DNA from: Patella caerulea
Lineage: Eukaryota
Assembly (NCBI GenBank): GCA_036850965.1
Contig: JAZGQO010000002.1
Coordinates: 26,932,901 to 26,996,900 of the forward strand
DNA length: 64,000 nucleotides
Direction of reading: 5' to 3'
Shown here: piece after piece, positions 3,301-13,433 of the stretch
How positions within the stretch are numbered: the first letter of the stretch is position 1
Layout: each line of letters begins with the position of its first letter
Program-made: the position numbers and the translations under genes
The notes under the pieces: generated by a model
What the model was told of the DNA's origin: nothing
Seen by the model: the letters and a program-made list of their open reading frames with translations, nothing else
Databases searched by the model: none

Positions 3301-3673
3301 GGAAGGTTCTAGTTTGGGTCAGTGGAAGAACGAGTTGCCCGAAGATGTCACCATTCGAGAATTTGTTAGCGGAGGGCCAAAGAATTACGCGTACCGCCAG
3401 AGCGATGGAAAAACTGTATGTAAAGTCCGGGGATTCACCTTGAATTACCGTGCCTCCCAGCAGCTGAACTACGCCATCATGAAGGAGAATGTACGGCACG
3501 TCAATCAAAACGAGCCTCTGGTCATAGCCAATCCGTTCAAGATTACCAGATCACGTGACCGCCGTCTTTGGACACGCCCCGAGAACAAAAGATATAAAAT
3601 CGTGTATGACAAGCGGTTTGTTCAATTCAATGACGATGGCCAACCGAGCAACACTTACCCCTATGGATACTGA
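332..3673 (+). CDS. Protein-primed family B DNA polymerase (pPolB) with a Cys/His-rich N-terminal region.
   Basis: Exo I FVFFDFECQ, Exo II HNFKGYDG, Exo III YCKSDVDVL. Pol motif A DVVSLYPY, motif B KLQLNTAWGKFGQR, motif C YFDTDSV. Confidence 0.9.
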   Translation: METWELYAKYLGEQGYQLNVFSRAIFGKAIYRGTKHVTGTPKHLNLYLHDRHYDVITSMPAFVERSYFCETCQVGYDHAEIHSCHVMCHGCKTVGPPCPPDPNTKTCYRCHRVFVSRQCFDNHLATRSRAKCSVCYRWKKCEKCQKEWDVIKAKRNLEEHRCGEYECSICREWHTAEKQFCYIQPLKSPIDMNKDRKTQMDKLQKSTLTRFVFFDFECQQDTGEHIPNLCVLQTCCHFCIDNQDPCEHCDTYWNHQREMVFKGPDTLDDVGKWFLQLAAHGTVVDGRKHDSHESSPVIAVAHNFKGYDGLLILQTLHKHSVAQPEVIMNGGKAMTITVGTVKFIDSLNFLPMALRDMPKTFGLQELKKGYFPHHFNRPENEEYVGAYPPDTDYDPDGMSVTEREKFHEWYQQHSHHVFDFRQEILAYCKSDVDVLRRCCGVFREIFLMDTGIDPFEKSLTLASACSRVLRTHYIKKDTLVVIPRALMQELKLGKDWHRFQPRQQSNKALRWLEWEQHQQTMAAFRNQTPLPNIRHARNGSECRVGPYSLDGMDKTTGTVYEFHGCAFHGCPKCYPGPVQDLQHKHPYDPSRSMRDLYQQTQERHRRLQEQYGMQTIRVMWECEMEEERRHDPEMDEFLQGLEDQQWPAPEPLMPRNAFFGGRTNAIQLLVNESVEDMRYIDVVSLYPYICKYGTFPIKEPTIVTQPDQDQWQQYEGLIQCSVLPPRGLYHPVLPFRSKQKLVFALCRSCVDEHMQQGEIAEYQPCEHTDEQRAWVGTFVTLELKKAVTLGYQVLKFYEVWHWKEFSTYDPEAKTGGLFTGYINHYLKKKMESSGYPDTCHTEEDKTRFVNDVYDTEGIRLDPASIKPNKGMRAFSKLQLNTAWGKFGQRDNFPKTEYITEPSVYFEKMLDVTQTVRDVQLVNDNMVLMETLKKEEHVAPCPITNVVIAAFVTAQARLKLYSVLEKLGERVCYFDTDSVIYQYHATSWNPPEGSSLGQWKNELPEDVTIREFVSGGPKNYAYRQSDGKTVCKVRGFTLNYRASQQLNYAIMKENVRHVNQNEPLVIANPFKITRSRDRRLWTRPENKRYKIVYDKRFVQFNDDGQPSNTYPYGY
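3593..3600 (+). promoter_or_regulatory. TATA box (TATAAAAT) inside the pPolB 3' coding region, 37 nt upstream of the ATG of the death-domain gene.
   Basis: Spacing matches the other TATA-to-ATG pairs in this element. Confidence 0.45.
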
Positions 3674-4475
3674 CTTGCGGGTCTCGGGAACATGGCGAAC
3701 GAACGGAGAAGAGGACGAACCGGCAGAAAATATGATCGAGAAACTTAGACAACGATGGCTCAACTTTCGAGTGTTGAAATGTTTCCTGCCCATTATAGAA
3801 GAAAGGCAACACGAAGAGTGTATCGGCTGCAAGTACGAACATCCCAGTCAGAGATACCACTCGTGTCTGGGACTAGGCGTTTCTTCCATAACGGGTCAAC
3901 CCTCGCACCCCGTGGACGATTACAATCACTACCTTTGGGTGGACGAGCCGAAACTGCAAGACATCGATAACGTGCTAGGCAGTATGATGGACGATCCACG
4001 GGATCAAGTCAAGACGTGGGAGGACGAACAACGATGGCGAGAAGACGTCGACAAAGCCTTGAAAAAGTTCTGGACGGTGGTACCGGGCTTTAAGACCTCG
4101 TTGATCAAACGCAAAGACGAGTTTGTCGAACAGAAAGAAGACTCCATACGCCAGTGGATGGACGGTTTGCCGAAGAAAAAGAAACGATGGTCTCTGGATC
4201 AAATGGATATCAATGTCATGTCCGGCAACATGGGAGAAGACTGGGAATGTATTGGCAGACATCTGGGGATCAGAGAAGCGCGAATCAGTCAAGCCAAGAT
4301 GAGTCATCCCAACAACGCGCGCATGCAAATCTTCACCGTGTTCAATCAATGGCGACAAAAGCACGGTAATGGAGCCGACCTGATGACGTTGTTGGAAGCC
4401 TGTCACGTGAGTGAAGCCTTGATCGATTGGGACGAAGTGAAAAAGTACGTGGACAGCCTGGAAATCATAGACTAA
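3630..4475 (+). CDS. Element-encoded protein with a C-terminal death domain (DD superfamily).
   Basis: The C-terminal ~80 aa (GEDWECIGRHLGIREARISQ..PNNAR...FNQWRQKHGNGADLMTLLEACHVSEAL) aligns without gaps to the FADD/MyD88 death-domain pattern (NxGxDW..(L/I)(A/G)R.L, second W about 36 aa later, A..L..AL). Candidate ATGs are at 3630, 3636 and 3663; the ORF overlaps the pPolB stop. Confidence 0.55.
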   Translation: MTMANRATLTPMDTDLRVSGTWRTNGEEDEPAENMIEKLRQRWLNFRVLKCFLPIIEERQHEECIGCKYEHPSQRYHSCLGLGVSSITGQPSHPVDDYNHYLWVDEPKLQDIDNVLGSMMDDPRDQVKTWEDEQRWREDVDKALKKFWTVVPGFKTSLIKRKDEFVEQKEDSIRQWMDGLPKKKKRWSLDQMDINVMSGNMGEDWECIGRHLGIREARISQAKMSHPNNARMQIFTVFNQWRQKHGNGADLMTLLEACHVSEALIDWDEVKKYVDSLEIID

Positions 4476-4524
4476 ACAACGAACCAATCAAAACGAAGGA
4501 AAAGAAAGAACCAATCAAAAGCGA

Positions 4525-4551
4525 GTGACGTCACGACCAAGACTATAAGAA
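4525..4551 (+). promoter_or_regulatory. Promoter of the CCHC gene: CRE palindrome GTGACGTCAC, two CCAAT boxes (4484, 4512), TATAAGA at 4544.
   Basis: The motifs are read directly. After removing the SINE and one duplication copy, the TATA-to-ATG distance is about 43 nt. Confidence 0.5.
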
Positions 4552-12708: not shown

Positions 12709-13216
12709 GGCTCTCTCCAATCGACAACTGACACGGGCTTTAGAAAAACACCTCCCCGCTAACGTGTTCGGGGGCGTGTGGGCTCGTAATCATCTGGATA
12801 TACTGCGCCCGACCTCGTACCCCAAAGCCTACGTCATCAACACGGACGACGAAGACCAACCCGGTAGACACTGGACCGTGTTTGTGTGCGAAGGACCAGA
12901 TCACATTACCTTCTTTGATTCCTACGGGTGTCCCCCTGATGTTTACGGAGAAGCCTTTCGACGTTTCGTCCAAGATCTACAACTCCACTACCAACCCCGA
13001 TGGATTCAGGGACTCGAGAGTGTCGTCTGCGGCCATTATTGTTTGTATTATTTGTGTCATCGGTTTCACGTTCCCTCCCCGCACGCCCTTTCGGTGTTCG
13101 GGCACGTGTATCGTGTGAACGATATACTCGTCGAACAATGGGCTAGGGATCATTTTCCCGACTTGCAAAAAGACCAGAAGAAGGGACAACGATGTCGATG
13201 CTTTTTTGCTCTGTAA
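12662..13216 (+). CDS. Adenovirus-type (adenain/Ulp1-like, C5) cysteine maturation protease.
   Basis: Catalytic His GRHWTVFV, Asp FFDSYG, Gln-Cys QGLESVVCGHYCLYYL, in adenain order. First ATG is 12662; the ORF-track start at 12611 is GTG. Confidence 0.75.
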   Translation: MSWKSTPTDKSSQIGEALSNRQLTRALEKHLPANVFGGVWARNHLDILRPTSYPKAYVINTDDEDQPGRHWTVFVCEGPDHITFFDSYGCPPDVYGEAFRRFVQDLQLHYQPRWIQGLESVVCGHYCLYYLCHRFHVPSPHALSVFGHVYRVNDILVEQWARDHFPDLQKDQKKGQRCRCFFAL

Positions 13217-13329
13217 ATATGTTTTTTGTGTTAAAGTTCAATTAAATTTGTGTTCTATGCCTTTGTGTTCAATTTTGTGTTGAATAAAATGCTTTGTAAA
13301 TATGTTCAATAAAATGTCGACAACATATC

Positions 13330-13433
13330 ACGTGTCTGTTGTTTGTGACGTCATGTGACGTCATGCTATTCTGATTGGTTGGAAAATGGTATCGTCCCAA
13401 CACCTTAGACTCGTCCCGTCTCGAACTATAAAT
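13330..13433 (+). promoter_or_regulatory. Promoter with two TGACGTCA (CRE-like) palindromes, an inverted CCAAT (GATTGG) and TATAAATAGG (13426). Two AATAAA poly(A) signals (13284, 13311) follow the protease gene.
   Basis: Direct read. ATG 13468 lies 35 nt after the TATA. Confidence 0.5.

Follow-up and report, generated by a model that had tools for sequence, protein, structure and literature searches.

TATA boxes resembling host-type core promoters ahead of most genes of a Polinton/adintovirus-like element in the limpet Patella caerulea

The first ~13,960 nucleotides of a 64,000-nt stretch of the genome of the limpet Patella caerulea (GenBank assembly GCA_036850965.1, contig JAZGQO010000002.1, positions 26,932,901 to 26,996,900 of the forward strand; the whole stretch is referred to as the window, and all positions are given in its coordinates) make up the right-hand portion of an adintovirus-type Polinton/Maverick, and the subject of the present analysis is the series of TATA boxes that precede most of its genes. 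The element (1..13960, + strand) is recognized by its composition, by Pfam matches of its proteins, by the identity of its capsid protein to known sequences and by its colinearity with a related contig from the Tara metagenomes (L001). Its left end lies outside the window, all of its long open reading frames (ORFs) are on the + strand, and its GC content is ~50%, compared with 30–40% in the host flank.

The polymerase gene pPolB was identified by Pfam (PF03175, E 1e-39), and the C-terminal half of its product exhibits 47% identity to a protein named ‘PolB-C [Rhodactis coral adintovirus]’. Pfam likewise matched the integrase (rve, PF00665, E 3.5e-11, plus a chromodomain), a Death-domain protein and a CCHC zinc-knuckle protein (zf-CCHC); the P-loop packaging ATPase gave a match to Pox_A32 that fell below the cut-off. 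The 455-aa product of the ORF at 11341–12708 is 99% identical to a P. caerulea protein carrying the UniRef name ‘Major capsid protein’, 61–69% identical to proteins of Lottia gigantea and to two proteins from the Tara metagenomes, and 30–40% identical to many mollusc, annelid-associated and echinoderm sequences named ‘F54H12.2-like’; the designation major capsid protein used below is that of the source names (‘Major capsid protein’, ‘F54H12.2-like’). The protease is assigned from a weak match of the Peptidase_C5 family to its orthologue in another close relative (L004), and the penton is assigned by synteny. No RNA polymerase or transcription-factor domain was detected by Pfam among the element proteins encoded in the window, and since no RNA polymerase gene is found there, the element presumably relies on the polymerase of its host.

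The copy is decayed. An in-frame TAG interrupts pPolB (269–271), the integrase and penton genes contain frameshifts (8769–8793 and 10126–10177, respectively) when compared with their intact orthologues in L001, and a tRNA-derived short interspersed nuclear element (SINE) of 287 bp has been inserted into one of the promoters (4575–4861), where it is flanked by an 11-bp target-site duplication, ACTGAAATTTC, at 4564–4574 and 4862–4872. The promoters described here are thus relics of an active virus. A second copy of the SINE, 95% identical, is present in host DNA of the window (26324–26526, − strand), and no Rfam family matched it. The SINE is the only component that recurs, no second copy of the element itself being found in the rest of the window.

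Ten TATA boxes, all on the + strand, accompany the genes of the element. The leftmost, TATAAAATC (3593..3601), lies in the 3′ coding region of pPolB and would serve the Death-domain ORF (ATG at 3630 or 3636, end at 4475), with an initiator-like sequence, TCAATTC (A at 3624), matched downstream of it. The zinc-knuckle ORF (ATG at 4885) would be served by a complex promoter (4481..4552) comprising two copies of GAACCAATCAAAA (CCAAT at 4484 and 4511), a cyclic AMP response element (CRE), TGACGTCA, at 4526–4533, and the box TATAAGAAG at 4544–4552. It is this promoter that the SINE disrupts, by separating the box from its initiator and ATG; once the SINE is removed in silico, the box is followed by TCATTC (A at +32) and then by the ATG at +43. 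The box TATAAAAGG occurs twice, at 5870..5878 ahead of the packaging ATPase gene (ATG at 5913, +43) and at 6520..6528 ahead of ORF317 (ATG at 6565, +45). Ahead of ORF150 (ATG at 7574) there is TATAAAAAG (7536..7544), accompanied by the initiator TCAGTC at 7568–7573, the A of which (7570, +35 relative to the box) is placed 4 nt before the ATG. The box TATAAATAG is found in three places: at 8533..8541 it precedes the frameshifted integrase gene (ATG at 8569, +36), at 9574..9582 it precedes ORF92 (ATG at 9610) and is again followed by TCAGTC (9601–9606; A at 9603, +30, 7 nt before the ATG), and at 13427..13435 it terminates a second complex promoter (13346..13435) containing a tandem CRE, two copies of TGACGTCATG (13346–13365), and an inverted CCAAT or Y-box, CTGATTGG (13371–13378), which would serve the small Cys-rich ORF66 (ATG at 13468, end at 13668). 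Two boxes stand farther from their putative genes: TATATAAGG (10819..10827), embedded in the penton coding sequence as the codons Y-I-R and followed by the initiator CCATTTC (A at 10851), would serve ORF156 (ATG at 10896) with a predicted leader of ~45 nt, and TATAAAAGA (11237..11245), embedded in the coding sequence of ORF156 and followed by TCACATC (A at 11270), would serve the major capsid protein gene (ATG at 11341) with a predicted leader of ~70 nt. The initiators of boxes 3593, 4544 (SINE removed), 10819 and 11237 conform to the looser consensus YYANWYY and are located at +32 to +34.

Three of the boxes incorporate the end of the preceding gene, the stop codon of which supplies the TAA of TA-TAA-A at 6520 (ATPase; stop at 6522–6524), 8533 (ORF229; 8535–8537) and 9574 (integrase; 9576–9578). 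Stops embedded in boxes also occur in L001 (TAA at 1348–1350, 2178–2180 and 3163–3165). Eight of the ten boxes match TATAWAWR and the other two (3593 and 4544) differ from it at one position; there is no TATAWAWR on the − strand of the element. The sequence TATAAA occurs eight times on the + strand of positions 1–13700, with 1.57 ± 1.19 occurrences expected and none of 1000 dinucleotide-preserving shuffles reaching eight, whereas the − strand holds a single copy; the pPolB coding sequence that precedes 3593 (3.6 kb) does not contain any.

Measured from the first T of the box, the ORF starts at 37, 43, 45, 38, 36, 36 and 41 nt at seven sites (the 37 nt at box 3593 being the distance to the second ATG) and at 77 and 104 nt at boxes 10819 and 11237. 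If ATGs closer than +28 are disregarded, the first one falls at +35 to +46 and opens an ORF of at least 60 aa for seven of the eight TATAAA sites, a condition satisfied by 8.45% of the positions in the element (binomial P = 2e-7); counted in the same way, each of the ten boxes (SINE removed) leads to the start of its expected gene. Among the 13 genes with their upstream region in the window (the promoter of pPolB lies outside it), ten have a box, the exceptions being ORF229, penton and protease. These results bear on a previous reading of the same DNA from its letters (the sequence-only reading), which had reported ten TATAAAWRG boxes at a near-constant 35–45 nt upstream of almost every gene. 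All of these boxes exist within 1 nt of the places given, four coordinates being off by 1. The consensus is strictly followed by six boxes, with the other four deviating; the spacing holds for eight (36–45 nt, in one case after removal of the SINE) and fails for 10819 and 11237; and ‘almost every gene’ proves a generous wording for 10 of 13. That reading also rightly placed several boxes inside upstream 3′ coding sequence (3593, 10819 and 11237, besides the three that contain the upstream stop), and its report of palindromes and CCAAT boxes beside two of the boxes is borne out by TGACGTCA, which occurs in the element at 4526, 13346 and 13356 only, all near boxes 4544 and 13427, together with the CCAAT and CTGATTGG motifs listed above.

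Relatives from other species and from metagenomes were compared in place of sibling copies from the same genome. The 8.1-kb contig L001 (67% capsid identity) is colinear with the window from an accessory BIR gene to the small Cys-rich ORF, and L004 exhibits 69% capsid identity; of the two Lottia loci, L005 and most of L089 consist of N-gaps, and L089 was used for the 3′ end of pPolB only. In L001, TATAAA or TATATAAGG is present at the same junctions as in the window, with box-to-ATG distances of 42 nt for the ATPase, 37 nt for ORF265, 35 nt for ORF151, 39 nt for the integrase, 37 nt for ORF90, 80 nt for ORF140, 92 nt for the capsid gene and 36 nt for ORF65. The box ahead of both the ATPase and the integrase of L001 reads TATAAATAC; window boxes 6520 and 9574 align with TATAAAAAGG and TATAAATAG of L001, respectively; the ORF150-type promoter has the same TATAAAAGG...TCAGTCATGG arrangement as that at window position 7536; and CCAAT plus TATAAAAGC are located 36 nt 5′ of the 65-aa ORF homologous to ORF66. 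The boxes within coding sequence are likewise retained at orthologous junctions in L001, L004 and L089. Indeed, TATATAAGGA is found 80 nt before the ATG in L004, as it is ahead of ORF140 in L001, TATAAAAGACC is found ~91–92 nt before the capsid ATG in both, and TATAAAG and TCAYTTC are kept in the pPolB 3′ coding region of Lottia L089 at the position orthologous to box 3593. The recurrence of long spacings in the relatives indicates that the 77- and 104-nt distances in the window belong to conserved long-leader promoters and are not exceptions.

These comparisons are relevant to the suspicion that the boxes are a by-product of composition and coding, i.e. of A/T-rich gene ends, TAA stops and Tyr-Lys or Tyr-Ile codons, devoid of any regulatory role. 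Three of the boxes do hold a stop codon, three translate as Y-K or Y-I-R, which are themselves conserved residues, and close relatives suitable for footprinting are few. We nevertheless regard this explanation as extremely improbable, because the shuffles never reached eight sites, the strand ratio is 8:1, the pPolB coding sequence is free of boxes over 3.6 kb, and composition cannot account for the fixed spacing of the box to the initiator and to the ATG. In the three-way alignment of the window, L001 and L004, moreover, TATATAAGGA and the downstream CCATT are invariant while the neighbouring codons vary, the exact nucleotides of the box being kept where flanking codons change synonymously.

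To place the boxes in a broader context, we analysed ~85 related loci, 80 of them metagenomic with 36–40% capsid identity. Across 529 kb of these relatives, TATAAA occurs 403 times on the gene strand and 117 times on the other strand. When 546 ORFs of at least 80 aa from 71 loci are aligned at their first ATG, TATAAA on the gene strand is concentrated at −60 to −31, with no peak on the other strand. A frequency matrix built from 128 unique sites reads TATA(A/T)A-W-R-G, followed by T-C-A-W-T-T at +31 to +36, and the extended motif matches the consensus TATAWAWR of the TATA-binding protein (TBP). Among 262 unique TATAWAWR sites, with no condition on ORFs imposed, the A of TCA[GT]T[CT] falls at +33 in 44 cases, at +34 in 15 and at +35 in eight, and the motif is nearly absent at other offsets from 12 to 65. 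An initiator A at 32–35 nt is present at 70 of the 254 + strand TATAWAWR boxes in the relatives, at none of 70 − strand boxes and, among 77 boxes in the window's host DNA, at one.

The composites of TATA box and initiator also predict gene starts. Of 71 unique composites, 67 have an ORF of at least 60 aa opened by the first ATG that follows the predicted A+1, and the predicted leaders measure 4–27 nt or, in a longer class, 60–88 nt. For the capsid gene, 40 of 67 distant relatives have TATAWA at a distance of 90–129 nt 5′ of the ATG, and the protein hosting this box is too diverged for BLASTP (2 matches), yet the box is kept. The penton gene, without a box of its own in the window, has one in distant relatives, 177–189 nt upstream and with no ATG in between. 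Two expectations of the sequence-only reading, namely that the motif would be enriched 5′ of ORFs in other copies and that it would be useful for defining true starts, are supported in cross-species relatives, by the strand-specific peak and by the 67 of 71 composites together with the ten window boxes, respectively.

A coupling of this kind has a bearing on who reads the boxes. They might be virus-specific promoters recognized by an element-encoded factor or by a helper virus instead of host TBP and RNA polymerase II (Pol II), and one near-uniform motif before the morphogenesis genes does resemble a viral late-promoter regime; several element ORFs without a functional annotation could encode regulators, and the zinc-knuckle protein and the Cys-rich ORF66 are under more complex promoters of their own. 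What makes this possibility improbable in our view is, above all, that a TBP consensus is coupled to a metazoan initiator at the canonical distance, whereas a promoter of the giant-virus or virophage type would carry a motif unrelated to either. In addition, the same box heads non-structural genes (Death-domain, zinc-knuckle, integrase and ORF66), and Pfam did not detect any polymerase or transcription-factor domain among the element proteins. We know of no giant-virus helper for elements integrated in animal nuclear genomes.

A different function deserves consideration as well. TATAAA is a weak variant of the poly(A) hexamer, used as such by hepadnaviruses, and the boxes might accordingly end the upstream mRNA before the next ATG and so create monocistronic mRNAs, possibly besides a role as promoters. 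The position of many boxes at or on the upstream stop (6520, 8533 and 9574) would fit, as would the embedding of 36 of 213 TAA stops of the relatives in TATAAA, compared with 6% of all TAA trinucleotides; a CA ~30 nt downstream would suit a cleavage site, too, and canonical AATAAA is rare within the gene block. On the other hand, boxes 3593, 10819 and 11237 do not follow the stop of the gene to be terminated but lie ~70–120 nt upstream of it, so cleavage would truncate the ORF, and the capsid-class box is inside the preceding ORF in the 40 of 67 relatives mentioned above. The W-R-G extension and the full TCAKTY at a fixed +33 are features of promoters rather than of cleavage sites, and boxes 5870 and 13427 come after canonical AATAAA signals already serving the upstream genes. 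A poly(A) function of the boxes thus seems quite improbable.

The explanation that we favour with good, though not complete, confidence is that the boxes are canonical TBP-binding TATA boxes of Pol II core promoters, usually with an initiator ~32 nt downstream, and that there is one such promoter per gene or per pair of overlapping genes. In the metazoan TATA–initiator arrangement the T of the box is at about −32 and the initiator conforms to TCAKTY or YYANWYY, and host-type TATA promoters are to be expected of a nuclear DNA virus without an RNA polymerase of its own. The proposal of individually promoted Pol II genes with a shared grammar, already put forward in the sequence-only reading, is accordingly supported at the level of predicted sites by the TBP consensus, the fixed initiator, the first-ATG rule and the boxes at orthologous junctions. 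Its further remark that such detail is unusual for a Polinton is apt insofar as we found no description of it in the literature, and is less so in that the arrangement is what the lack of a polymerase would lead one to expect.

Under the favoured explanation, transcription would start 30–35 nt after the box, which would result in leaders of ~4–15 nt for most genes and of ~45–70 nt for ORF156 and the capsid gene, and the first AUG of each transcript would be the gene start. Because the genes abut or overlap, most promoters are situated in the last codons of the upstream gene. The two CRE/CCAAT promoters, located in real non-coding gaps (4481–4552 and 13346–13435), may be early promoters driven by host factors. 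Leaky scanning, in which ribosomes bypass the cap-proximal AUG of ORF150 and ORF92, would give access to the box-less ORF229 and penton gene, respectively. This is suggested by the short leaders (4–7 nt) predicted for these two transcripts and by the absence of any ATG, in any frame, between the ATGs at 7574 and 7848 (274 nt; ORF150 to ORF229) and between those at 9610 and 9851 (241 nt; ORF92 to penton); in L001 there is likewise no ATG between the starts of ORF90 and penton. We had also considered that ORF150 and ORF229 might be a single frameshifted gene, a possibility dropped as L001 has the same overlapping pair.

The protease gene (12662–13216) is the third without a TATA box. Its ATG overlaps the capsid stop by 46 nt in both the window and L001, and in other relatives it abuts the capsid stop as TAACATG or with a one-base overlap of stop and start (L086, 1376–1380; L087, 2914). 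Coupled translation and a minor transcript are both possibilities for its expression. A candidate splice donor after the capsid ATG (CAG/GTAATG) that would feed the protease was rejected, the GT being absent from L001 and L004.

The transcripts initiated at the boxes would read through downstream genes to one of three 3′ ends, forming nested 3′-coterminal mRNA families as in herpesviruses. Two of the ends are predicted from the positions of poly(A) signals: an AATAAA at 5820..5825, in the gap after the zinc-knuckle gene, would be shared by the left-hand transcripts, and a cluster at 13283..13313, in the gap after the protease gene (AATAAA at 13283 and 13308, with an ATTAAA at 13241), would be shared by the block from ATPase to protease. 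These two gaps are the only sizeable non-coding ones, and elsewhere in the element AATAAA occurs on the + strand at 908 and 8022 only; L004 has an AATAAA at the place matching 13283/13308. Such a placement suggests the nested 3′-coterminal organization.

The third predicted end is of a different kind. A candidate histone-mRNA-type 3′ stem-loop, GGCCCTTTTCAGGGCC, accompanied by the purine tract AAAAGAGTTGT, lies at 13686..13731 on the + strand, the predicted 3′ end being assigned to the stem-loop at 13691; the structure, CCAACGGCCCTTTTCAGGGCCAAC...AAAAGAGTTGT, starts 18 nt 3′ of the stop of ORF66. In a search of 801 nt, it aligned with all 46 positions of the Rfam family RF00032 at 33.4 bits (E 1e-7), slightly below the gathering score, which is 34; members of this family have a stem of 6 bp closed by a UUUC loop of 4 nt, with A-rich sequence on the 5′ side, AC-rich sequence on the 3′ side and a purine-rich element farther downstream. 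A similar structure occurs near the right end of L004 (3515–3561; 33.1 bits), where the base of the stem is A-U instead of G-C. RF00032 did not match L001, L002 or L003, L001 having a different hairpin and an AATAAA instead; an Rfam scan of the window and four loci at the gathering threshold yielded nothing, a scan of the related loci with a strict stem-loop pattern did not reveal any further histone-type structure, and a search of IMG/VR returned neither capsid relatives nor a match to such a stem-loop. Three Logan contigs (L086, L087 and L088) proved to be fragments without a poly(A) tail or informative ends. As a lead, the predicted stem-loop would imply a non-polyadenylated viral mRNA coupled to S phase; we did not find any literature on histone-type 3′ ends in Polintons or in animal DNA viruses.

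Several observations weigh against the scenario outlined above or narrow its scope. The strict initiator TCAKTY is found at +32 to +35 at only one of the eight TATAWAWR boxes of the window, and boxes 5870, 6520, 8533 and 13427 are not accompanied even by a match to YYANWYY. No box is present within 260 nt of the integrase in 28 of 35 distant relatives and of the protease in 50 of 56, indicating that ‘one promoter per gene’ characterizes the sublineage of the window rather than the whole family. The related loci depend on one another, so the counts given above overstate the number of independent observations. A CRE combined with a TATA box as a family-wide module is not supported, since 5 of 38 CRE sites are near a box, with ~8% expected. 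ATG-free gaps of 230–240 nt exist elsewhere in the element, and there is one ATG between ORF151 and ORF226 of L001, which makes the evidence for leaky scanning modest. Finally, AATAAA is not significantly depleted in the late block (there is one, at 8022, and sites are few), leaving the co-terminal model as an argument from signal position.

When all the components are joined, a picture emerges of a whole expression programme written in host signals, with ~10 TATA–initiator promoters giving leaders of 4–15 nt, nested 3′-coterminal mRNAs, two pairs of genes linked by leaky scanning, two early CRE/CCAAT promoters and an mRNA of the Cys-rich gene that ends in a histone-type stem-loop and not in poly(A). 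In this complete form the picture is tentative and, on balance, rather unlikely to be correct in every part. If true, it would tie the Cys-rich gene to S phase via the SLBP/U7 pathway of the host.

It is instructive to compare the element with better-known systems. With the metazoan TATA–initiator core promoter it shares the consensus of the box and of the initiator, their spacing (T at about −32), the orientation towards the gene and the first-AUG rule; unlike in that system, the promoters of the element are packed into the last codons or the stop of the preceding gene, the predicted leaders are unusually short (~4–15 nt), and most promoters have no room for upstream activator sites outside coding sequence. 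The early promoters of baculoviruses consist of TATA plus CAGT and are read by host Pol II, and the late genes are transcribed by the viral polymerase from a TAAG motif. The early promoters thus offer a parallel, in an invertebrate nuclear DNA virus, of a host TATA plus (T)CAGT grammar with short leaders, the difference being that in the element the host-type box also precedes the capsid and packaging genes and that Pfam did not find a viral polymerase.

Adenoviruses are related to the element through the capsid, the protease, the packaging ATPase and the protein-primed PolB, and there are similarities in promoter sequence as well: the box at 6520, TATAAAAGGGGGACC, resembles that of the adenovirus major late promoter, TATAAAAGGGGG, and the TGACGTCA (CRE/ATF) sites in two promoters of the element recall those in the adenovirus E2–E4 promoters. 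Adenovirus late mRNAs are all made from one promoter by splicing and alternative polyadenylation, whereas in the element the late genes have boxes individually or by pairs, and we did not see a conserved splice signal. Tandem same-strand genes with their own TATA boxes and sparse poly(A) signals (5820, 13283/13308) at the ends of gene blocks are reminiscent of the nested 3′-coterminal families of herpesviruses, although the element is ~10 times smaller, its genes overlap and its coterminality is predicted from signal positions only. Virophages and Polinton-like viruses, relatives of Polintons, resemble the element in having a recurrent short motif before genes; these motifs are short, A/T-rich and shared with the giant-virus helper (for endogenous virophages see PMC8547959). 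They differ in being read by cytoplasmic giant-virus machinery, as opposed to the nuclear TBP/initiator grammar of the element.

Several groups of eukaryotic DNA viruses are considered to descend from Polintons and adintoviruses, the transcription of which is almost undocumented. Our survey of the literature, in which two older foundational Polinton/Maverick papers were not covered, did not reveal any analysis of promoters or transcription starts in Polintons, Mavericks or adintoviruses; in the paper describing adintoviruses (PMC8502044), TATA occurs in a gene name only and promoters are never mentioned. What is described here is an ordinary kind of promoter in a group for which it has not been written down before, with no new mechanism involved. 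The conserved TATA–initiator grammar would point to the use of host Pol II with gene-by-gene promoters, in contrast to the single late promoter of adenoviruses and to the giant-virus-type motifs of virophages. It would also provide a rule, applicable from sequence alone to thousands of unannotated copies, by which the start of a gene is the first ATG after box +30; in the window this rule selects 3630 and not 3555 or 3606, 5913 and not 5826, and 6565 and not 6553. The grammar predicts exact coordinates of transcription starts and 3′ ends.

Some further features of the element and its surroundings may be mentioned. Accessory genes vary among close relatives: the window contains the Death-domain (3630–4475) and CCHC zinc-knuckle genes, whereas L001 has a BIR (IAP-like) gene (37–684) in the accessory slot directly 5′ of the ATPase gene. 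The Death-domain and BIR genes suggest that apoptosis of the host is interfered with. Repeats, both simple and short tandem ones, make up the right end of the element (13740–13960), namely (CT)n, (GC)n and CACGTG-rich units resembling CACGTGCAAGGTCA, and this end is probably a terminal repeat region. Beyond it, the host flank contains a long array of ~330-bp tandem repeats (GGGCGTGGCTCTGCCCCTGGGGGT...) at 14800–16700, with a (CA)n tract at its end.

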